Shown here piece by piece: positions 1 to 62,601 of a stretch of 64,000 nucleotides of DNA; within the stretch, counting starts at the first letter, position 1; each line of letters starts with the position of its first letter. Under the pieces are notes generated by a model, which was not told the DNA's origin, searched no databases, and saw only the letters and a program-made list of their open reading frames with translations. The position numbers were made by a program, and so were the translations under genes. Source of the stretch: a phage. The DNA is taken from sequence record PZ019085.1; one strand, written 5' to 3'.

Positions 1-693
1 ATTCACAAGAACGGTGGGAAGAGCTATGCTCCTACTAAAGCATTCCGTGAATTTGAACGTAAATATTGTCATATGACTTCAGCTCTTACTGACAAAATTG
101 ATTATGACTACTGGCGTGAAAATCCATTATTTGAACCTGATGACTACCCAGTTATTTGTTTGAATGAAAAACCTGAAGTTCTTCCGGCAACTGATTTGAT
201 TATTAGTGCTCAACGTTATGACACTAAGATGCGTCGCACTGATGTTGCTCTTGAAGCAATTAAAGCACTAGGCGAAAATGGTATTGGTTATTGTCCAAGC
301 AAATGGGCACCACCAGCTAAATATCCTGTTATTATTGATGCTCCACATAGTGAAATCATGGAACGTCTTAAAACAGCTAAAGCACTTATTAATACGTGTC
401 CTGACACAGGTACGGTAGAGAATAGTTCTATTGAAGCCATCTCTAAAGGTGTCCCTGTAATCCAGTTAGTTTTTAAGGATTATCCTCATGCGACATTCGA
501 ATACGACCCAGATACTGTGCGTGTAGAAATTGATTCCTCTACTCCTAAGAAAGAAGTAGTTGCGCTTTACACAAAAGCTGTATTAGAATTCACTGACACA
601 TACGAAGCTCGAGTTAAACGTGCTGAAGCAGTATGGAAGAAGTATAATCGAGATGCAGTTGTTGCGATGTGGGATAAAATCTTCACAGCGTAA
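1..693 (+). CDS. Hypothetical protein, C-terminal portion; reading frame is open to the window edge (first in-frame ATG at 73)
   Basis: Frame 1 has no stop from nt 1; no SD before ATG 73. Motif SIEAISKGVPVI weakly resembles the E-x7-E/G-PV region of GT-B glycosyltransferases. Does not match my recollection of T4 gp60/gp39. Confidence 0.45.
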   Translation: MHKNGGKSYAPTKAFREFERKYCHMTSALTDKIDYDYWRENPLFEPDDYPVICLNEKPEVLPATDLIISAQRYDTKMRRTDVALEAIKALGENGIGYCPSKWAPPAKYPVIIDAPHSEIMERLKTAKALINTCPDTGTVENSSIEAISKGVPVIQLVFKDYPHATFEYDPDTVRVEIDSSTPKKEVVALYTKAVLEFTDTYEARVKRAEAVWKKYNRDAVVAMWDKIFTA

Positions 694-3221: not shown

Positions 3222-4169
3222 ATGTACAATATCAAATGCTTGTCCCAAGAAGAACAGTTAGAAGCTTACGGCCTTGTTGAATCAGGCAAATGGACTCGTA
3301 AAGAAATTGCCGATTACTTCGACATTTCAACAGATACTCTTCGTAAGATTGTTAAGAATTTTAAAGCTGAAGGCGTTGTCCCTGAAGCAAACGATGCCTC
3401 TTATGTAATCGAAGAAGTTCCAGAAAATAATGAACCTATTATTACAGGTCATCGTCCAGAAATCGTATGGAACGCGTCATCTAAATTTATTTCAATCATT
3501 GAAGGACGCGTAGCATACAATGCGACTCCATCAAGTCATGCAAATTTTGAAGAAATTAAAGCTAATCTGGTCGCAGGAAACCTTAGTAAAGCTGTCGAAC
3601 TTATTAACATCAAGAAAGCTATTAGTAAGTTTGTTGACGGTAATGTTACTATTGAAGGTGGTAGTTTATTTTATCAAGGTATAGAAATTCGTTCAGGACT
3701 GGTTAATCGTATTATTGATTCCATGGAAAAAGGTGAAGACTTTAAATTCTATCTGCCGTTCCTTGAAAACCTGTTAGAAAACCCAAGCGAAAAAGCTGTA
3801 CAACGTTTATTCGACTTCTTGGTTGCAAATGATATTGAAATCACTGAAGATGGGTATTTCTATGCATGGAAAGTAGTTCGTAAGGACTATTTAGACTGCT
3901 ATAGTGGCACATTTGATAACTCGCCTGGTAAAGTTGTTTCAATGCCTCGTACTCGAGTTAACGACGATGATACACAAACTTGTTCCCGTGGTCTACACGT
4001 TTGTGCTAAATCATATATTCGTTACTTCGGTTCAAGCTCAGATAAAGTTGTTAAGGTTAAAGTTCATCCACGTGATGTTGTATCCATCCCAGTTGACTAT
4101 GGTGATGCTAAGATGCGTACTTGTCGTTATGAAGTAATTTCAGACGTTACTGAATTATTTGCAGAATAA
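3222..4169 (+). CDS. rIIB: rIIB protein
   Basis: 315 aa (T4 312); position after rIIA; followed by strong terminator. Confidence 0.88.
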   Translation: MYNIKCLSQEEQLEAYGLVESGKWTRKEIADYFDISTDTLRKIVKNFKAEGVVPEANDASYVIEEVPENNEPIITGHRPEIVWNASSKFISIIEGRVAYNATPSSHANFEEIKANLVAGNLSKAVELINIKKAISKFVDGNVTIEGGSLFYQGIEIRSGLVNRIIDSMEKGEDFKFYLPFLENLLENPSEKAVQRLFDFLVANDIEITEDGYFYAWKVVRKDYLDCYSGTFDNSPGKVVSMPRTRVNDDDTQTCSRGLHVCAKSYIRYFGSSSDKVVKVKVHPRDVVSIPVDYGDAKMRTCRYEVISDVTELFAE

Positions 4170-4174
4170 TAATT

Positions 4175-4197
4175 GGGGACTTCGGTCCCCTTTTTTT
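4175..4197 (+). terminator. Intrinsic terminator after rIIB (GGGGAC-UUCG-GUCCCC + T7)
   Basis: 6-bp GC stem, UUCG tetraloop, 7 T. Confidence 0.8.
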
Positions 4198-4211
4198 CTT
4201 TAGGGGTAATT

Positions 4212-4499
4212 ATGATTCATCCATTTGACGTATCAGAATCCAAAATTGCTAATCTTCGTGGTCATCATAAGTGTAAATCAGTTTATTGTGCTAAATTGGT
4301 AAAACATCCTGGTGATGCACACTACGGCTGGTTAGAATGTGACGAAGTTGTTATTGAAATCCCACCTGTAGATGCAGAATATCTTGAAGAAGGTGACCGC
4401 ATTTATTTTGGCGAACTACACATCAGAGGTATCTATGGTAAAGACGAACTTGGGACTGTTGAGACTGAAGAATCTTCCGACATTTATCCTGTCGAATGA
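4212..4499 (+). CDS. Hypothetical protein
   Basis: ATG 4212 preceded by AGGGG SD; A/T-rich third codon positions support this frame through 4499. Confidence 0.45.
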   Translation: MIHPFDVSESKIANLRGHHKCKSVYCAKLVKHPGDAHYGWLECDEVVIEIPPVDAEYLEEGDRIYFGELHIRGIYGKDELGTVETEESSDIYPVE

Positions 4500-4515
4500 G
4501 TTTTTGACTGGTGAA

Positions 4516-4992
4516 ATGAAGGTGAAGATTGCTGACACTGCTCGGTATTCCCTGAGCCAAAATCCTGACCAAAACAAAGAAGATGTAGTTCGACGTTGTA
4601 AGGTTGCGGTCTTTGCAGAGTATGTGGTAGCAAATTGGCTAGACGGATATGTTAATAAAGGTATTGAAGACGTAGAAGACCCGTACACGTATGCGTGGGA
4701 CGTGTTAGCCCATCCCAAGTATTGTGGAATTCGTGTAGAAGTCAAGACACACCAGATAGATTCTAAATGGATTTCAGTTACCACAGGATACAGTGGTGAT
4801 TATCCGGGTGGTAATGGAATCAATATAGGGCCCTTCTTGAACCATCGAGTCGCAGATTGCATTATTATATTAGATGTCAAAGAAACCTCACCTGACGTCT
4901 TCTCTTATTCTATAAAGTTTGTGGGAGACCATGAAGACCTAAAGAAAATCGTCCGCAAGAGCAACTACAACGGGTGGTATCTTCATCTTTAA
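4516..4992 (+). CDS. Putative endonuclease IV-like protein (denB position); start uncertain (alternatives TTG 4504, ATG 4435)
   Basis: Position between rIIB and ndd as T4 denB; ORF 4372..4992 trimmed to first start after upstream stop. Confidence 0.4.
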   Translation: MKVKIADTARYSLSQNPDQNKEDVVRRCKVAVFAEYVVANWLDGYVNKGIEDVEDPYTYAWDVLAHPKYCGIRVEVKTHQIDSKWISVTTGYSGDYPGGNGINIGPFLNHRVADCIIILDVKETSPDVFSYSIKFVGDHEDLKKIVRKSNYNGWYLHL

Positions 4993-5004
4993 TTTCATAA
5001 AAGT

Positions 5005-5034
5005 GTTTACAACTAAGTAGGACTATGTTATAGT
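5005..5034 (+). promoter_or_regulatory. T4-type early promoter (-35 GTTTAC, 18-bp spacer, TGn-TATAGT)
   Basis: GTTTAC 5005-5010, TATAGT 5029-5034; ~27 nt upstream of ORF 5061. Confidence 0.7.
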
Positions 5035-5060
5035 AGTCCTATCTAAAAGAGGATAACATT

Positions 5061-5324
5061 ATGAAATTTAAATTTTTCTACGCAAAACATAAAGTAACAG
5101 GCGAATTTGTTTCAATGTACAACACTGCAGATGACGAAGGGATGATTTATACCCATTTGGGACTATCTCATTGGGACTCAGACGTGCCTTATATGTCATC
5201 TGAAGCCGAAATAACTCGTTTAGTTAATGGACATATGAACGACCATTTTAGTGTTATTCTTTCTAAAGACCTTAAAGAGGTTATCAACAAAGGATATATG
5301 GAACTGGCGGAAGTTGAGCTATGA
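5061..5324 (+). CDS. Hypothetical protein
   Basis: 87-aa ORF 20 nt downstream of early promoter 5005..5034. Confidence 0.5.
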   Translation: MKFKFFYAKHKVTGEFVSMYNTADDEGMIYTHLGLSHWDSDVPYMSSEAEITRLVNGHMNDHFSVILSKDLKEVINKGYMELAEVEL

Positions 5325-5407
5325 GCTCTAAAATGTGGATCGGAATATGGTTGCTTAGTATCCCTATGATTTGTATAATATTTTCAATTGCATTGAGGTA
5401 CTTATGA
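5321..5407 (+). CDS. Small hydrophobic peptide (28 aa), translationally coupled (ATGA overlap)
   Basis: ATG overlaps stop of upstream ORF; MSSKMWIGIWLLSIPMICIIFSIALRYL is TM-like. Confidence 0.25.
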   Translation: MSSKMWIGIWLLSIPMICIIFSIALRYL

Positions 5408-5514
5408 AAAATGCACTTCTTATTGTACTAAGAACAATTTGCGATACGGGTTTTTACATTGCGTGTTCGTTCACAGGAACATGGTTGGCTTTAACATATT
5501 TTAATGTAATTTAA
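5404..5514 (+). CDS. Small hydrophobic peptide (36 aa), translationally coupled
   Basis: ATG overlaps stop of 5321..5407; hydrophobic. Confidence 0.25.
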   Translation: MKNALLIVLRTICDTGFYIACSFTGTWLALTYFNVI

Positions 5515-5516
5515 TT

Positions 5517-5546
5517 GTTTACAACAAGGTAGGATTATGGTATAGT
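5517..5546 (+). promoter_or_regulatory. T4-type early promoter
   Basis: GTTTAC 5517-5522, TATAGT 5541-5546. Confidence 0.7.
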
Positions 5547-5574
5547 AGTCCTATCAAAACACGAGGAACACAAA

Positions 5575-5775
5575 ATGGCTAAGCTTTTTAAAGATGTTGA
5601 AATTGGTGAAAAATTTGTCCTGAATAATGGCCAGCAGCTTATTCGTGTAGCTTCTATCGCCGGACAAACTCATAACTGTATCGCCCCAACGTGTTGGACT
5701 CGATTCTTTATTGAAGATGACACTGAATGTTTAACTGTTGAAGAGCTTTTTGAACGTTCTGATATGGCCGAATAA
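5575..5775 (+). CDS. Hypothetical protein
   Basis: 66-aa ORF downstream of early promoter 5517..5546. Confidence 0.5.
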   Translation: MAKLFKDVEIGEKFVLNNGQQLIRVASIAGQTHNCIAPTCWTRFFIEDDTECLTVEELFERSDMAE

Positions 5776-5777
5776 AA

Positions 5778-5807
5778 TTGTACAAACTCTTGAGAGCAGA
5801 GTATAAT
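5778..5807 (+). promoter_or_regulatory. T4-type early promoter (variant -35 TTGTAC, TATAAT) upstream of ndd
   Basis: TTGTAC 5778-5783, TATAAT 5802-5807; nearly identical to promoter at 33756. Confidence 0.6.
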
Positions 5808-5851
5808 GCTCTCATGGATTACAAAAACATTAATCAATTGAGGAAATTAGT

Positions 5852-6298
5852 ATGTCTAAATATTTAACTCGTAAAGACCTTCTGGCAGTTGGTGGTGAAG
5901 TTGTTGCAGTAGTTCGTAATGGCGAATACGGTTCCGAAGTTTCTAAAGAGTTTCGTTCTCGTGAAGGTTTTTACTTCTTTGTTAAAGGTTCATCCGATTG
6001 GCGACAAGTAGCAGCACGATTCTTTGTAGGACGTCAACGTTCTAAACAAGGGTTGGATGCAATTCTTTCTCACATTCGTCAAGGCCGTTCGCAACTAGCC
6101 CGTACCATGGGTACTAACAATATTGAATATGATGTAATCTTTGTTGCAGCTAAGAACATGAAACCACTGACTACTGGTTATGGTAAAGGACAATTGGCTC
6201 TGGCATTCACTCGCAATCATACATCAGAATATCAAACACTCACTGAAATGAACCGTCTTCTGGCAGATAATTTCAAATTCATTCTGCAGAGTTACTAA
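5852..6298 (+). CDS. ndd: Nucleoid disruption protein Ndd
   Basis: 148 aa; strong similarity to T4 Ndd (…QRSKQG…LSHIRQ…RSQLART…KPLTTG…[13 protein letters not shown]…EYQTL…MNR…LADNFKF). Confidence 0.85.
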
Positions 6299-6305
6299 TT
6301 TATAT

Positions 6306-6340
6306 AGGCCTATTAAGCTAGGCCTTTAATTTATTTTTGA
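6306..6340 (+). terminator. Possible terminator after ndd
   Basis: AGGCCT…AGGCCT stem with 8-nt loop then T-rich tract. Confidence 0.35.
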
Positions 6341-6350
6341 GGTAATTAAA

Positions 6351-6497
6351 ATGGTAGCATGGATTATTGCATTACTGTGTTGGTCGTTTTTATTCGTTAA
6401 CACTTTAGTTACAGGCGAAACATCAGTATTTCAACAGGCGGTGTCACAAGGTACCTTAGCAGTCTTAGCTCTTATTAACGTATTAAAAGGCGAGTAA
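6351..6497 (+). CDS. Small membrane protein (48 aa), Ac-like position
   Basis: GAGGT SD 7 nt upstream; hydrophobic; T4 has ac (51 aa) between ndd and 52. Confidence 0.4.
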   Translation: MVAWIIALLCWSFLFVNTLVTGETSVFQQAVSQGTLAVLALINVLKGE

Positions 6498-6637
6498 TGA
6501 TTAAGAAAATCTTAGCAGGAGCCTTCGGGCTCTTGTTGTTGCTTACGGTTCTGTACTATGGTGTGTTGTTTGGACTAATCCAAGTAGTGCTTTTCATTTC
6601 AGATGTTATAATGGTTATTCGTTCATTAATATGGTGA
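6497..6637 (+). CDS. Small membrane protein (46 aa)
   Basis: TAATG overlap with upstream ORF; hydrophobic; ends 4 nt before gene 52. Confidence 0.35.
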   Translation: MIKKILAGAFGLLLLLTVLYYGVLFGLIQVVLFISDVIMVIRSLIW

Positions 6638-6641
6638 AAAT

Positions 6642-7967
6642 ATGCAATTGAATTCTCGTAATCTAAAAAGTATTATTGATAACGAAGCCTTAGCATATGC
6701 GATGTACACCGTTGAAAACCGTGCAATCCCAAACATGATTGATGGATTTAAGCCGGTTCAACGTTTTGTGGTTCATCGTGCATTAGATTTGGCTCGTGGT
6801 AATAAAGAAAAATTTCATAAACTTGCGTCAATTGCAGGCGGTGTTGCAGATTTAGGTTATCACCATGGTGAATCTTCTGCACAAGATGCAGGTGCATTAA
6901 TGGCTAACACGTGGAACAACAACTATCCACTGTTAGATGGTCAAGGCAACTTTGGTTCTAGAACAGTCCAAAAAGCTGCAGCGTCTCGTTATATTTTTGC
7001 TCGTGTAAGTAAAAATTTCTATAACGTATATAAAGATACTGAATATGCTCCAGCTCATGAAGATAAAGAACACATTCCACCAAAATTCTATCTTCCTATT
7101 ATTCCGACAGTTCTTTTGAATGGCGTCTCTGGTATTGCAACCGGTTACGCAACAAATATTCTGCCTCATAGTTTTAAATCAGTCAAAAAGGCTGTATTAC
7201 AAGCTCTTCAAGGTAAAAATGTCACTAAGCCAAAAGTTGAATTCCCGGAATTCCGTGGTGAAGTACATGAAGTTGATGGGCGTTATGAGATTCACGGAAC
7301 ATATAAGTTCACATCTCGAACTCAAATGCAGATAACTGAAATCCCGTATAAATTTGACCGTGAAACGTATGTGAGTAAGGTTCTTGACCCGTTGGAAGAC
7401 AAAGGTCTAATCTCATGGGAAGATGATTGTGGTGAACATGGCTTTGGGTTTAAGGTGAAGTTCCGTAAAGAGTACTCGCTTCCTGATGATGAAGAGCTAC
7501 GTCATGAAAAAATCATGAAAGATTTTAGTCTCATCGAACGTCGTTCACAAAACATCACAGTGATTAATGAAAAGGGTAAATTAGCGGTCTATGATAACGT
7601 AGTGGACTTAATCAAAGATTTTGTTGAAGTCCGTAAGACTTACGTTCAGAAACGTATTGACAACAAAATCCTTGAATCTGAAAAAGCATTTAAACTTGCT
7701 TTTGCTAAGGCACACTTCATCAAAAAAGTTATTACAGGTGAAATTGTGATTCAGGGCAAGACTCGTAAAGCTTTGACTGAAGAGCTAGCACAAATCGAAA
7801 TGTATAAAGAACATGTCGATAAACTGGTAGGTCTTAACATCTTCCATATCACTTCCGACGAAGCACGTAAACTGGCAGAAGAAGCTAAAGCTAAGAAAGA
7901 AGAAAATGAGTATTGGAAGTCTACTGATGTTGTGACAGAGTACACTAAAGACTTGGAGGCACTTTGA
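6642..7967 (+). CDS. 52: DNA topoisomerase II medium subunit (GyrA-like cleavage/religation)
   Basis: 441 aa (T4 442); GyrA/ParC-like N-terminus incl. catalytic-Tyr context. Confidence 0.95.
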   Translation: MQLNSRNLKSIIDNEALAYAMYTVENRAIPNMIDGFKPVQRFVVHRALDLARGNKEKFHKLASIAGGVADLGYHHGESSAQDAGALMANTWNNNYPLLDGQGNFGSRTVQKAAASRYIFARVSKNFYNVYKDTEYAPAHEDKEHIPPKFYLPIIPTVLLNGVSGIATGYATNILPHSFKSVKKAVLQALQGKNVTKPKVEFPEFRGEVHEVDGRYEIHGTYKFTSRTQMQITEIPYKFDRETYVSKVLDPLEDKGLISWEDDCGEHGFGFKVKFRKEYSLPDDEELRHEKIMKDFSLIERRSQNITVINEKGKLAVYDNVVDLIKDFVEVRKTYVQKRIDNKILESEKAFKLAFAKAHFIKKVITGEIVIQGKTRKALTEELAQIEMYKEHVDKLVGLNIFHITSDEARKLAEEAKAKKEENEYWKSTDVVTEYTKDLEAL

Positions 7968-8044
7968 GTGCCCTAGCCTTAGGATTTCTCGGTGCAATAG
8001 CTGCACTAGTGATTTGGCTATATTGGTTGGACAAACATGATTAG

Positions 8045-8064
8045 GGAGCTTCGGCTCCTTTTTG
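8045..8064 (+). terminator. Intrinsic terminator after gene 52 (GGAGC-UUCG-GCUCC + T5)
   Basis: Stem-loop plus T-run. Confidence 0.75.
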
Positions 8065-8086
8065 TGCATTTTTTTCTAACAAAACA

Positions 8087-8118
8087 GTTTACATGTGCTT
8101 CAAACATGATAGTATAGA
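8087..8118 (+). promoter_or_regulatory. T4-type early promoter upstream of motA
   Basis: GTTTAC 8087-8092; -10 region TAGTATAGA 8110-8118. Confidence 0.65.
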
Positions 8119-8154
8119 CCTATCAAAACAAAACAACCAAATTGGAGAAATAAA

Positions 8155-8787
8155 ATGTCTAAAGTTACTTACATCATCAAAGCTTCTGAAAACGCTCTGA
8201 ATGAAAAAACTGCTGCAATAATGGTTTATATCATTAAGAACAACTTCACCACTGCTGCCAATGTCCGTGAAGCTCTGGAAGCGGAATACAATGCATCGGT
8301 TGTTAACTCTAACATTGGTGTATTGATTAAGAAAGGTTTAGTCGAAAAATCTGGTGATGGACTTATAGCAACAGGTGAAGCAATGGATATTATCCAAAAA
8401 GCTGCAGACCTATTTGCTCAAGAAAATGCTCCAGAACTTCTTCAGAAACGTAACACCAGAAAAGCACGTGGAGTTACTCCTGAAATGCATGAACTAGCAA
8501 ACTTTGTTTTTGAAAATATTAAAGATAAAGTTGAAGTTAAAGAAATTGGTGAAAACCGTAGTAACTTGGAAGTTCGATTTGCAAAACGAGTTCTAGGTAT
8601 TCGTCAGATCGAAATTCGTCGAAATGGTTCTCTTAGAATCTTTGCATACAACATGTCAGAAACTGAATCAAAGCTGTTTACTTCTCTTGAAAATGATGTT
8701 AAGATTAAGATCGGTGGTAAATATACTTACATTGACTTCCCTAATGTGTCCAAAGAAATCATTACTCTTGTAACTAACGTACTGTGA
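8155..8787 (+). CDS. motA: Middle-transcription activator MotA
   Basis: 210 aa (T4 211); N-terminus MSKVTYIIKAS… and NSNIGVLIKKGLVEKSGDGLI match T4 MotA. Confidence 0.9.
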   Translation: MSKVTYIIKASENALNEKTAAIMVYIIKNNFTTAANVREALEAEYNASVVNSNIGVLIKKGLVEKSGDGLIATGEAMDIIQKAADLFAQENAPELLQKRNTRKARGVTPEMHELANFVFENIKDKVEVKEIGENRSNLEVRFAKRVLGIRQIEIRRNGSLRIFAYNMSETESKLFTSLENDVKIKIGGKYTYIDFPNVSKEIITLVTNVL

Positions 8788-8797
8788 GGAATACATA

Positions 8798-9142
8798 ATG
8801 AATAAGCTGAATATTATTAACGAACTTCGTAAATGCGCAGAACCTACTCAGGAAGGATGGGATATTTGGTACCACGGGGCTTATTTAGGGACAATTGTAA
8901 AGGTTAAAGCTGGGTTATATTTAATTATTCGCGAAAATTCCGAATTCCCTAATGGAGTAGCTCCTGGTGGTCTTCGTAAAAACTATATGGCCGCGATCAG
9001 TTCATTTGTTGATGCAGCTTACGAAATCTATAAAGAAGATTATAAAGAATATCAGCAGTCGCAACCGGTTATTCGTTCGATTGGTGTAAATAAACAAGCA
9101 CAAAAATCTATTTGGCAACGTATTAAGGAATGGTTTAAATGA
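8798..9142 (+). CDS. Hypothetical protein
   Basis: 114-aa ORF in motA-asiA variable region. Confidence 0.55.
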
Positions 9143-24411: not shown

Positions 24412-24443
24412 GTTTACTTTTCCTTTAAACATGATACTATAGA
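24412..24443 (+). promoter_or_regulatory. T4-type early promoter
   Basis: GTTTAC 24412-24417; TACTATAGA 24435-24443. Confidence 0.65.
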
Positions 24444-24470
24444 CTTATCAACAAATTAGAGGAAAATAAA

Positions 24471-25137: not shown

Positions 25138-25166
25138 TTTACAACAAGATAGGGCTATGTTATAGT
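25137..25166 (+). promoter_or_regulatory. T4-type early promoter
   Basis: GTTTAC 25137-25142; TATAGT 25161-25166. Confidence 0.7.
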
Positions 25167-25200
25167 AGTCCTATCAAATAAAAGTGAAGAGGAGAATAAA

Positions 25201-31166: not shown

Positions 31167-31195
31167 TTTACACACCACAAGGATTGTGGTACAAT
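31166..31195 (+). promoter_or_regulatory. T4-type early promoter upstream of rnlA
   Basis: GTTTAC 31166-31171; TACAAT 31190-31195. Confidence 0.65.
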
Positions 31196-32347: not shown

Positions 32348-32409
32348 TGGTTTACAAACACCAAGGAAGGTGTTACTATGGTTTTTATCAACAACACGAG
32401 GAGAAAATT

Positions 32410-33756: not shown

Positions 33757-33785
33757 TTTACAAACTCTCGGGAGCAGAGTATAAT
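33756..33785 (+). promoter_or_regulatory. T4-type early promoter
   Basis: GTTTAC 33756-33761; TATAAT 33780-33785. Confidence 0.7.
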
Positions 33786-33813
33786 GCTCCTATGGATAAT
33801 TGAGGAAATCTAA

Positions 33814-35879: not shown

Positions 35880-35909
35880 GTTTACAACACAGTAGAGTTG
35901 TGATACTAT
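35880..35909 (+). promoter_or_regulatory. T4-type early promoter (drives ORF 35938 and probably DAHP synthase and cd)
   Basis: GTTTAC 35880-35885; TACTAT 35904-35909. Confidence 0.65.
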
Positions 35910-36174: not shown

Positions 36175-36294
36175 TGAGAGCTATCTCATTACTATAGAGA
36201 ATGGTCATAAATCTGAGCACTACCAACTTAGCCTGTCTAATCCGGTTAAAGGTATTGTTGAATCAGAATCTGTTTATATCTCCTAAGGATTGTT

Positions 36295-37287
36295 ATGTTA
36301 CCTGTCGTCGGAAAACTTATTTCTCCAAAAGAACTGGCTGAGATTATTCCTTTGTCGGAAGCTTACGCATCACAAGTGGCTTCTCATCGCGAACAAGTTA
36401 ATTCGATTATGAACGGTGAAGACCCACGCAAACTTATTGTTGTAGGTCCTTGTTCAATTCATGACCCTATTGCTGCTGTTGAATACGGCAAACGTCTGGC
36501 TGAACTTCAAACTCGTCTTCCTAATGTTCTGTTAGTGATGCGCGTTTATTTTGAAAAGCCTCGAACTACCGTAGGTTGGAAAGGTCTTGTAAATGATCCA
36601 TATCTTGACGGAAGTTTTGATATGAACCACGGTCTTATAGTTGCACGAACATTGTGTCGTAAACTTCTACGTATGGGACTTCCATTAGCAACTGAAGTAT
36701 TAGACCCATTCACGATTAAGTATCTTTCTGGTATTTTCTCATGGGTTGCTATTGGCGCCCGTACGACTGAAAGTCAGACACATCGTGAAATTGCTTCAGG
36801 TCTACCGATGTGCGTAGGCTTCAAGAACGCAACCAATGGTTCTATTAAAGTAGCTACAGACGCGATGTATAGTGCCGCCTGGCCTCATCGGTATATGGGT
36901 ATGGACGTCGATGGTACTGTAGGCATTGTTGAAGCTGAAGGTAATCAGAATACGCATATCGTATTGCGTGGTGGGACCAACGGCCCGAACTATCATTCTT
37001 CTGATATTCAAGAAGCTTCTAACAAAGCAAGGGCAGTAGGTCTGAATCATTATGTAATGGTTGACTGTAGCCATGCAAACGCTGATGGGCATTATAGCAA
37101 TCAAATTGGTATTGGTAAAAATTTAGCAGCTAATGATTTGGTCAAAGGAATTATGATAGAATCATTCCTACATGAAGGAAATCAAAAAATTTCTGATAAT
37201 ATGTCCTATGGCGTTTCCGTTACCGATGCGTGCATCAGTTGGGAACAAACTAAAGAGCTGTTAACTTATATTAATAAGGTTCAATAA
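36295..37287 (+). CDS. 3-deoxy-D-arabino-heptulosonate-7-phosphate (DAHP) synthase, class I (AroG/AroF/AroH-like)
   Basis: 330 aa; hallmark motifs KPRTTVGWKG and GARTTESQ; metal ligands conserved (GPCSIHDP Cys, DCSHAN His, HEGNQ Glu, TDACI Asp); SD AAGGA. Confidence 0.85.
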   Translation: MLPVVGKLISPKELAEIIPLSEAYASQVASHREQVNSIMNGEDPRKLIVVGPCSIHDPIAAVEYGKRLAELQTRLPNVLLVMRVYFEKPRTTVGWKGLVNDPYLDGSFDMNHGLIVARTLCRKLLRMGLPLATEVLDPFTIKYLSGIFSWVAIGARTTESQTHREIASGLPMCVGFKNATNGSIKVATDAMYSAAWPHRYMGMDVDGTVGIVEAEGNQNTHIVLRGGTNGPNYHSSDIQEASNKARAVGLNHYVMVDCSHANADGHYSNQIGIGKNLAANDLVKGIMIESFLHEGNQKISDNMSYGVSVTDACISWEQTKELLTYINKVQ

Positions 37288-39481: not shown

Positions 39482-39486
39482 TTTTA

Positions 39487-39508
39487 GGGAGACTTCGGTC
39501 TCCCTTTT
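39487..39508 (+). terminator. Intrinsic terminator (GGGAGAC-UUCG-GUCUCCC + T4)
   Basis: Same 18-nt hairpin as 24362; follows small ORF 39302..39481. Confidence 0.75.
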
Positions 39509-39984: not shown

Positions 39985-40016
39985 GTTTACTTTGGTACAG
40001 GTTATGTTATTATAGA
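39985..40016 (+). promoter_or_regulatory. T4-type early promoter
   Basis: GTTTAC 39985-39990; TATTATAGA 40008-40016. Confidence 0.65.
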
Positions 40017-40054
40017 CCTGTACCAACAAACAACTTAAACATCTGGAGAATAAA

Positions 40055-46890: not shown

Positions 46891-46919
46891 TTTACAAACA
46901 CATGGATGTGTGATACTAT
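46890..46919 (+). promoter_or_regulatory. T4-type early promoter
   Basis: GTTTAC 46890-46895; TACTAT 46914-46919. Confidence 0.65.
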
Positions 46920-46948
46920 CATCCTATCAACAACATGAGGAAAACGTT

Positions 46949-47242: not shown

Positions 47243-47251
47243 ACCCCTAAA

Positions 47252-47273
47252 GGGAGACGTTGTCTCCCTTTTT
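47252..47273. terminator. Bidirectional terminator between convergent ORF 46949..47242 and gene 54
   Basis: GGGAGAC-gtt-GTCTCCC followed by T5; T-rich on both sides. Confidence 0.7.
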
Positions 47274-59292: not shown

Positions 59293-59499
59293 ATGGGATT
59301 GATTATGAGAGCTGAAGTTGAAGTTTATACATTACACGAGGCGGGATTTTCATTCGTAGAAATTGCTCAAAAAATCGGTTTACAACCTAAAGAAGTTGGA
59401 TTACTATGGACTAAAGCCGAGACAGCTCGGTCAAAGTTTAAAGCAAAAGAAAAAGTTGTATACCGTAAACGTTTGATTAACAAAAAGGTGAAGAAATGA
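59293..59499 (+). CDS. Hypothetical protein (24.3 position)
   Basis: 68-aa ORF. Confidence 0.5.
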   Translation: MGLIMRAEVEVYTLHEAGFSFVEIAQKIGLQPKEVGLLWTKAETARSKFKAKEKVVYRKRLINKKVKK

Positions 59500-60865: not shown

Positions 60866-60872
60866 CGAAAAA

Positions 60873-60896
60873 GGGACCTTACGGTCCCTTTGTTTT
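60873..60896. terminator. Bidirectional terminator between convergent rnlB and gene 24
   Basis: GGGACC-ttac-GGTCCC flanked by A-run upstream and T-run downstream. Confidence 0.7.
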
Positions 60897-62213: not shown

Positions 62214-62219
62214 AAGATT

Positions 62220-62252
62220 GTTTACAACGTATTTGGTATGTGATACTATAGA
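62220..62252 (+). promoter_or_regulatory. T4-type early promoter inside the late gene 24/23 intergenic region
   Basis: GTTTAC 62220-62225; TACTATAGA 62244-62252. Confidence 0.65.
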
Positions 62253-62279
62253 CTTATCAACTACAGAGGAGTAAACAAA

Positions 62280-62549: not shown

Positions 62550-62559
62550 AACCAAAAAT

Positions 62560-62577
62560 GGGAGACCGAAGTCTCCC
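62560..62577 (-). terminator. Terminator after gene 23 (also closes + strand ORF 62280..62549)
   Basis: GGGAGAC-CGAA-GTCTCCC; T-run on - strand side. Confidence 0.65.
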
Positions 62578-62601
62578 AAAATAAGATTTAATCAATTAAG
62601 A

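Follow-up and report, generated by a model that had tools for sequence, protein, structure and literature searches.

The 64,000-nucleotide stretch of phage DNA analyzed here over its whole length (sequence record PZ019085.1; referred to as the window) contains T4-type early promoters, and at seven of the 17 (about 40%) a strong stem of 7-11 bp brackets the -10 element. Judged by their organization, these dyads match composite cassettes of the promoter-early stem-loop (PeSL) type, in this case a T4-type early promoter with a superimposed stem-loop. The pairing of the two arms is itself under selection. The most likely mechanism, held here with modest confidence, is a between-gene hairpin which would act on read-through RNA and which is overlaid on the promoter for lack of room.

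PeSLs were described in the phages RB49 and phi1, where the stem-loops fall into five positional subclasses and mostly sit between the -35 and -10 elements or overlap the -10 box (Arbiol et al., 2010; PMC2839356). Their proposed roles are termination or attenuation as well as recombination, and in a reporter assay one cloned stem-loop reduced expression with an effect close to that of the rrnB T1 terminator (PMC2839356). The RB49/phi1 elements and the cassettes in the window share an early promoter overlaid by a stem-loop, an AT-rich upstream region, boundaries formed by the upstream gene's stop codon on the 5' side and by a Shine-Dalgarno sequence and ATG on the 3' side, and repeated copies before small early genes. 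As these structural features are present, the dyads are classed as PeSLs, an already known kind of element. The cassettes in the window differ in their T4-type promoter (GTTTAC-N17/18-TAnnnT with TGn, instead of a sigma-70 consensus), in their AT-richer stems of mixed composition, 7-11 bp long and without polyG/polyC, and in belonging to a Mosigvirus phage. Terminator activity and mini-circles have been shown for the RB49/phi1 elements only, whereas the cassettes described here are known from sequence. The original prediction had placed the dyad outside the described T4 early-promoter consensus. This is true of the reviews on T4 and RB69 early promoters, which mention extra conserved positions and no dyad (Nolan, 2006; Hinton, 2010), but the element has been published as the PeSL.

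Hairpins bracketing the -10 element

To judge by the 97-98% identity of its bases 4000-9000 to Mosigvirus (RB69-group) coliphages such as PNJ-6, ST0, HX01, and JS09, the window is a genome segment of a Mosigvirus, i.e., of an RB69-like, T4-like phage. Its + strand carries the early genes (denB, ndd, 52, motA and others), and the matches to GTTTAC-N15-19-TANNNT number 20 (5.1 expected), of which 19 are found on this strand. Inspection of the pattern matches together with a weight-matrix scan led to the acceptance of 17 early promoters, all on the + strand, of which 16 have GTTTAC and one has TTGTAC at 5778. All sites follow GTTTAC-N17/18-TAnnnT with TGn and an A-rich upstream region, in agreement with the promoter part of a PeSL. 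The seven strong stems represent four independent families, because the promoters at 5005, 5517, and 25137 are paralogous cassettes and those at 5779 and 33756 are likewise. The three TATAGT cassettes (5005, 5517, 25137) and the two AAACTC..TATAAT cassettes (5779, 33756) also provide the repetition that is typical of PeSLs.

A Watson-Crick stem of at least 8 bp brackets the -10 element at four of 14 non-redundant window promoters, while 0.023 are expected when each aligned column is permuted among the promoters with the consensus retained (registers i+j = 0..2); none of 2000 permutations reached four. Folded as RNA, the seven hairpins range from -12.2 to -17.9 kcal/mol with z-scores of -2.9 to -6.3 against dinucleotide shuffles, as expected of the stem-loop part of a PeSL. 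A hairpin of -10 kcal/mol or better is found in 42-59% of early-promoter regions vs. 7-10% of shuffles. Scanning the whole window for perfect inverted repeats (arm of at least 8, loop 3-16) yielded 33, compared to 19 +/- 3.9 in dinucleotide shuffles, and four of these repeats have a promoter -10 at their centre. The probability that the dyads reflect chance, or are a by-product of a partly self-complementary promoter consensus, is next to negligible. Some pairs are indeed consensus-driven (A at -4 with T at hexamer position 6; TGATA with TATCA), and GGATG/CATCC at 46904 is no better than shuffles; however, the column permutation, which keeps the consensus, expects 0.02-0.08 stems of at least 8 bp where 2-5 were observed, and a slid-register control agrees with it. 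The dyads are far commoner than in the column-permuted and shuffled controls, and for the seven main cases the chance reading is already refuted.

With k = 0 as the first base of the -10 hexamer (hexamer = k 0..5), the arms occupy k about -13..-4 and 5..14, which correspond to the spacer upstream of TGn and to the discriminator down to the start site, and the loop consists of TGnTAnnn(T), i.e., the extended -10. The window, RB69, T4, and the metagenomic relatives have one arm register in common, i+j = 1 counted from the first -10 base, with the axis of the dyad between T-12 and A-11. As the arms use the two promoter segments that are free of consensus elements, the fixed register requires no special role of the -10. 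The predicted start always lies downstream of the 5' arm and mostly also of the whole 3' arm, which usually ends at about +1 and, in the longest stems of the window, at +7 at most. The Shine-Dalgarno sequence follows roughly 10-25 nt beyond the 3' arm, and nothing is sequestered in this -10-bracketing class. Because the 5' arm lies upstream of the start, the promoter's own transcript is unable to form the hairpin; a hairpin at the 5' end of that transcript, one of three mechanisms initially considered, is thereby ruled out. With starts at the predicted positions, hairpin formation can occur solely in read-through RNA from upstream or in single-stranded DNA.

All individual hairpins listed here lie on the + strand. 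At the first TATAGT cassette (-35 GTTTAC, 5005-5010), the arms TAGGACTA/TAGTCCTA at 5018-5025/5034-5041 (-13.2 kcal/mol, z -3.8) enclose TGt and most of the -10 TATAGT (5029-5034); the upstream open reading frame (ORF) stops 12 nt before the -35 and the downstream ATG is at 5061. Its paralogous copy at 5530..5553, TAGGATTA/TAGTCCTA, contains one U.G pair (-10 at 5541-5546, -35 at 5517-5522; -13.7 kcal/mol, z -4.4). The third TATAGT cassette at 25148..25175, GATAGGGCTA/TAGTCCTATC, has one G.U pair (-10 at 25161-25166; -16.0 kcal/mol, z -6.3), and the TAG stop codon upstream of this promoter (25137) shares the G of GTTTAC. The stem TGAGAGCA/TGCTCTCA at 5791-5798/5807-5814 (-10 TATAAT, 5802-5807; -35-like TTGTAC, 5778-5783; -13.9 kcal/mol, z -4.1) precedes a 148-aa ORF at 5852, which holds the position of ndd in RB69. 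It shows a compensatory G-C to A-T difference from the paralogous 33756 cassette, whose stem-loop GGGAGCA/TGCTCCT (33770..33791; -10 TATAAT, 33780-33785; -12.2 kcal/mol, z -2.9) consists of the Watson-Crick core GGAGCA/TGCTCC at 33771-33776/33785-33790 and an outer G.U pair. The promoter of the cd.2 homolog carries GTAGAGTT/AACTCTAC at 35892-35899/35910-35917 (-10 TACTAT, 35904-35909; -12.5 kcal/mol, z -4.2), and that of the gene 30.7 homolog (39985) carries the 11-bp stem TTGGTACAGGT/ACCTGTACCAA at 39992-40002/40016-40026 (-10 TATTAT, 40008-40013; -17.9 kcal/mol, z -4.3).

Three further repeats are weaker. The hairpins ACCACAA/TTGTGGT (31174..31190; -7.2 kcal/mol, z -2.1) and AACACC/GGTGTT (32357..32374; z -1.4) are marginal and lie within the spacer, the former without bracketing the -10, and GGATG/CATCC (46904..46924) does not exceed chance (z -0.02; an equally good fold in 92 of 200 shuffles). 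The original prediction had counted dyads at eight or more of about 15 promoters. All of the dyads it listed were recovered by direct sequence check, at most one base away from where they had been placed, but the number of strong cases is seven of 17, since the dyad at 46904 is at chance and that at 31176 is a marginal spacer hairpin. The repeat given as 39995..40025 is also present, although its coordinates were one base off and its stem is really 11 bp long.

Pairing in RB69, T4, and metagenomic relatives

RB69 and T4 were scanned with a matrix built from the -35 and extended -10 blocks only. In RB69, at least eight copies of the TATAGT cassette were found. Among 24 non-redundant T4 promoters (registers 0..2), a stem of at least 6 bp occurs in six (0.4 expected) and one of at least 8 bp in three (0.02 expected); examples are ACAAGACTA/TAGTCTTGT, TGATGAGGTA/TACCTCATCA, GGGACCA/TGGTCCC, and GGTAGAGTT/AGCTCTACC. 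The longest example found, a perfect 14-bp inverted repeat AGTTGACAAGATTA/TAATCTTGTCAACT in the mobD.2a/mobD.2 interval of T4 (near 57.97 kb, - strand), surrounds an early-promoter -10 and is a paralog of ACAAGACTA/TAGTCTTGT; relatives carry G.T variants of this stem.

Addition of the neighbourhoods of MotA, gp31, RegB, and Dda from some 40 metagenomic T4-like phages enlarged the promoter set to 441 instances, 333 of them unique. In 55 promoter clusters from diverse T4-like phages, register 1 alone stands out (6 observed vs. 0.57 expected), and in 77 clusters stems of at least 6 bp were present in nine (1.2 expected) and of at least 8 bp in five (0.07 expected). A helix of at least seven Watson-Crick pairs in registers 0..2 is found at 59 unique promoters, which together have 46 distinct arm pairs. 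A dimeric, sequence-specific protein site, another of the mechanisms put forward initially, does not agree with these data, as no half-site is conserved and the 46 arm pairs contain covarying positions.

The AAACTC..AGAGTATAAT family includes four arm variants, all of which pair (GAGGACA/TGTCCTC, GGGAGCA/TGCTCCT, GGGACCA/TGGTCCC, and GAGAGCA/TGCTCTC), with A-T, G-C, and C-G found across its members at one position. Covariation was quantified in 51 promoters picked solely by their TATAGT hexamer (alignment A5), pairing k -13..-4 with k 14..5. Paired cells amounted to 72% (62.7% in shuffles), cells changed on both sides to 57 (29.8 in shuffles), and the covariation score to 0.362 (0.233 shuffled), none of these values being reached in 500 shuffles; the score dropped to 0.09-0.19 when the partner was slid by 1-3 columns. 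A column-pair matrix of excess pairing over all 333 promoters gave the highest values for registers 1 and 2, yet weakly, the signal being diluted by promoters without a dyad. A scan of IMG/VR for GTTTAC-N17/18-TANNNT-N6-ATCAA returned mostly unrelated contigs among the matches listed and was not used.

Orthologous promoters retain the structure as well. The stem of the cd.2 promoter is GTAGAGTT/AACTCTAC in the window, GGTGGAGTT/AACTCTACC in RB69, and GGTAGAGTT/AGCTCTACC in T4, and at the 30.7 promoter T4-type and other metagenomic T4-like relatives alike retain GGTACAGG/CCTGTACC but diverge in the loop and the 5' untranslated region. Searches with the gp30.7 and Cd.2 proteins recovered close relatives only, in which the stem is conserved with one G.U variant and without covariation. 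The dyads are thus kept in orthologous promoters of RB69 and T4. Taken together, the shared register, the compensatory variants and the covariation above shuffles confirm the earlier proposal that the symmetry is kept while the arm sequences vary, i.e., that selection acts on structure: the pairing itself is under selection.

A note in the T4 RefSeq record concerns the T4 ortholog of the window promoter at 35880. Positions 133300..133313 (L005 14397-14410) are annotated as [quoted passage not shown] and these positions coincide exactly with the loop that the arms GGTAGAG and CTCTACC enclose. The flipped 14-bp report is either a hairpin sequencing artefact or a real inversion.

Intergenic space and possible function

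In the DISCRIMINATING result, hairpin placement tracks the gap between the upstream stop codon and the -35. [quoted passage not shown] As for the other window promoters, 21115 has no co-directional upstream ORF and the rest show gaps of 16-133 nt, except 46890, where the gap is -1 and yet no significant hairpin is present. At four promoters (25135, 31164, 33754, and 46888) the upstream stop codon TAG overlaps the first -35 base (TAGTTTAC). Consequently, coding sequence and promoter are contiguous with zero intergenic bases, and the A-rich, UP-like region is located inside the upstream gene.

Across 321 unique promoters, an internal hairpin of -9 kcal/mol or better was present at 39.5% of those with a tight gap (at most 12 nt) vs. 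4.5% of those with a wide gap (at least 30 nt; Fisher p = 6e-13). The opposite was found for upstream hairpins, i.e., those in the 70 nt before the -35, which occur at 24% of tight and 65% of wide gaps (p = 2e-12). Grouping at the context level (211 groups) gave 38% tight vs. 4% wide for internal hairpins (p = 1e-8) and 25% vs. 68% for upstream hairpins (p = 8e-9). A hairpin that is located upstream where there is room and internally where there is none is a gene-junction feature, and such placement argues against devices tied to the -10, be it a cruciform switch or an operator. A DNA cruciform acting at the -10, as originally suggested, leaves unexplained why the hairpin moves upstream where intergenic room exists. 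None of the three mechanisms of the original prediction fits well, whereas its inference of selection on structure is right.

The fixed register, the covariation and the space rule speak for a hairpin that is part of the upstream message and not of the promoter. It would then be an ordinary between-gene element of the end of the upstream message and would take no part in recognition by RNA polymerase. In read-through RNA, the hairpin may attenuate transcription from upstream promoters or block 3'-to-5' decay of the upstream cistron. In addition, the repeated cassette of roughly 45 bp could supply homology for the recombinational shuffling described for PeSLs. Concerning the strand on which the structure matters, internal stem defects comprise 12 G.T, four A.C, and one other mismatch, and eight of nine class-I clusters fold better as sense than as antisense RNA. 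The difference in folding energy between sense and antisense over all clusters was not significant (10 vs. 6), and a positive control of the G.T to A.C comparison on upstream hairpins was swamped by chance helices. The evidence leans to a single-stranded form of the sense strand, most simply read-through RNA.

Several observations weigh against a hairpin that works in read-through RNA. The excess of G.T over A.C is suggestive only (binomial p = 0.08), and the advantage of the sense strand arises partly from consensus bases (TG; G at hexamer position 5 in TATAGT). None of 48 promoter-internal hairpins has a U-rich tail (at least five T in the 8 nt past the stem), and a terminator scan of the window flags none of the promoter-internal hairpins; lacking this tail, they are not canonical intrinsic terminators. 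Transcript-end data for T4 or this phage were not found in the searched literature, the start site at k 12 is itself predicted from consensus geometry (T-12, A-11, T-7; Nolan, 2006), and the sole experimentally tested PeSL stem-loop, from RB49/phi1, belongs to a G/C-rich class unlike the stems found here. Only about 38% of tight-gap promoters have the internal hairpin, which is therefore not indispensable, and the presence of an upstream co-directional ORF does not discriminate among promoters. Finally, the dependence on space fits a between-gene palindrome acting at the DNA level equally well.

This DNA-level palindrome is the main rival, although we consider it unlikely. A hairpin in single-stranded or supercoiled DNA, or a cruciform, would promote recombination of the cassettes (modular shuffling, mini-circles), and effects on RNA would be incidental. 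Besides the equal fit to the space rule, it is favoured by the repetition of cassettes within genomes (three TATAGT cassettes in the window and at least eight in RB69), by the occurrence of one cassette family before different genes (the ORF in the ndd position and a small ORF in the window, motB in T4) and by the 14 bp between the GGTAGAG/CTCTACC arms that, according to the T4 record, were once reported as their inverted complement. However, the excess of G.T over A.C (12:4) implies C.A mismatches on the antisense strand, which would weaken a two-stranded cruciform, and the arms, at 7-11 bp, are short for an extruded structure. Compensatory changes are frequent, although selection for evolvability acts as a second-order force, and in a small sample the indels that separate the window from RB69 lie away from these promoters. 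PeSLs are preferentially found at indels or replacements that distinguish close relatives (hyperplastic regions); here, the breakpoints relative to RB69, L143, L144, and L168 are mostly not within 80 nt of these promoters in this small sample, while cassette families do occur before non-orthologous genes. Less probable again is an absence of function, in which the palindromes persist by cassette duplication and by hairpin-templated (quasi-palindrome) mutation that mimics compensatory evolution. Many instances are indeed paralogous copies, and the stems are without any experimental link to a phenotype; templated quasi-palindrome mutation is reportedly well documented in T4 by the work of Ripley and co-workers. 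Such a process leaves unexplained the independent origins of unrelated arms in one register, the complementary internal and upstream placement by space, the conservation of arms across phage groups while loop and flanks diverge, and the tolerance of G.T where other mismatches are rare (12 G.T, four A.C, one other).

A device at the level of the promoter itself appears highly improbable. Here the dyad would alter promoter activity, possibly in early shut-off, either by extrusion of a cruciform or hairpin, which would conceal T-7 and the -10, or with the help of a protein that is dimeric or structure-specific. The axis does match the upstream edge of the transcription bubble (T-12/A-11), and the shut-off mechanism of T4 early promoters is called unknown in two reviews. 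Against this, the hairpin moves upstream when given room (internal at 4.5% of wide vs. 39.5% of tight gaps), shut-off is general while only a minority of early promoters have a dyad, the 46 arm pairs exclude a sequence-specific operator, and the G.T defects speak against a symmetric DNA structure. The particular version in which the dyad is a DNA-level off-switch, with a stem, extruded or bound by a structure-specific phage protein, in which T-7 is base-paired to the spacer and the -10 is trapped within the loop, is slightly more doubtful still; if true, it would help to explain the shut-off of T4-type early promoters a few minutes after infection. Two further candidates were rejected: an antisense-strand terminator, as the T-rich complement of the UP element is at least 12 nt away from the stem, and the terminal inverted repeats of a mobile element, as the arms enclose only 8-13 nt.

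Related elements, other hairpins and implications

PeSLs were later extended to T4/PST and KVP40/nt-1 (Comeau et al., 2014; PMC4122927). Their promoter type in T4/PST, TTTACW-N17-TAYWAT, is the same as that of the window, and the stems given as "AGNA-loop-TCNT" fit TAGGACTA/TAGTCCTA. According to the legend of that paper, the PST stems are placed just upstream of the promoter, and only sufficiently large intergenic spaces were examined in that study (PMC4122927). The promoter-containing repeats at T-even internal-protein loci are analogous elements built on T4 early promoters, and their AT-rich stems are weaker (Repoila, 1994, as cited in PMC2839356). In the parts of the PeSL literature consulted, statements on a -10-bracketing geometry, a fixed register, covariation or a dependence on intergenic space were not found.

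Read-through RNA of the T4 genes e, soc, 49, and I-TevI folds into a hairpin that contains the promoter and sequesters the ribosome-binding site (PMC3014915). As in the cassettes described here, the location of the promoter within the helix means that only transcripts started upstream fold, so that the origin of a transcript can be told apart. These T4 cases use late or middle promoters in contrast to the early promoters of the window, and the Shine-Dalgarno sequence is paired in the e/soc/49 type but unpaired in the -10-bracketing class. An identity with hairpins that sequester the ribosome-binding site was therefore rejected for this class, whose 3' arm ends at about +1 (+7 at most) with the ATG 20-38 nt past the start. 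Intrinsic terminators share the position of the hairpin just past the stop codon of the upstream gene, but in them a U tract directly follows a G+C-rich stem, where the stems described here are followed by the conserved start-site region, such as ATCAAC. A promoter with a short inverted repeat is also found in phage N4, in the promoters of the virion RNA polymerase. The N4 promoters are recognized as extruded DNA hairpins by the phage polymerase.

A second geometry is seen at the promoter at 24412, where the spacer UUCCUUUAA pairs with the downstream Shine-Dalgarno region UUAGAGGAA (24420..24464, + strand; -8.1 kcal/mol). Because the promoter lies inside such a helix, only read-through RNA would fold in this way and mask the ribosome-binding site. 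Equivalent pairings of spacer and Shine-Dalgarno region were identified at the regB promoters of T4 (near 62.77 kb, L006, - strand; TCCTCTTgACTG/CAGTtAAGAGGA) and RB69 (near 61.34 kb, L002, - strand; TCTCCTCTAGTTG/CAACTAGAGGAGA), whose arms are unlike those of T4 while the structure is kept, as well as at the T4 denV promoter (near 65.39 kb; CTCCTGTAG/CTACAGGAG) and the RB69 motB.2 promoter (near 7.41 kb; TCTCCTCTGGTT/AACCAGAGGAGA). The subset comprising window 24412, regB of T4 and RB69, and T4 denV fully follows the logic of T4 e/soc/49, but with early promoters.

Other loci in the window were noted in passing. A near-identical terminator-like stem, GGGAGAC-loop-GTCTCCC, is present at 39486-39505, 47249-47271, and 62559-62578, and looks like a repeated terminator cassette; a fourth terminator-like hairpin, AAAGGGACC/GGTCCCTTT, is located at 60870-60891. 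Between the cd.2 homolog and cd, a 1.1-kb segment (36184-37283) is absent from RB69 at this place, and the ORF at 36295-37287 encodes a 330-aa protein that matches Pfam DAHP_synth_1 (E = 5e-75), the family of the enzyme with which the shikimate pathway begins. An early-type promoter at 59378-59440 has neither the usual ATCAAC start region nor a nearby Shine-Dalgarno sequence and ATG; it is followed by the GC-rich hairpin CCGAGACAGCTCGG and then by a second -35-like GTTTAA, and may represent a leader/attenuator or a small RNA. The -35 region TTGTTTAC at 62217-62225 is complementary to GTAAACAA (62268-62275), located between the downstream gene's Shine-Dalgarno sequence and its AUG. This pairing may be due to chance, as in RB69 the corresponding -35 reads ATGTAC and the pairing is lost.

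For annotation, these findings mean that the dyads should be labeled PeSL-type promoter/stem-loop cassettes and not operators or novel regulatory sites. They add to the PeSL picture a register rule, under which the arms use those positions that are free to vary, as well as compensatory evolution, which spans three named phages (the window phage, RB69, and T4) and about 40 metagenomic relatives, and a space-dependent placement. For the engineering of T4-like early promoters, edits of the spacer or discriminator can destroy a selected structure, and read-through RNA is structurally unlike promoter-initiated RNA. The cassettes thereby represent a case of two signals densely overlaid in a compact phage genome.

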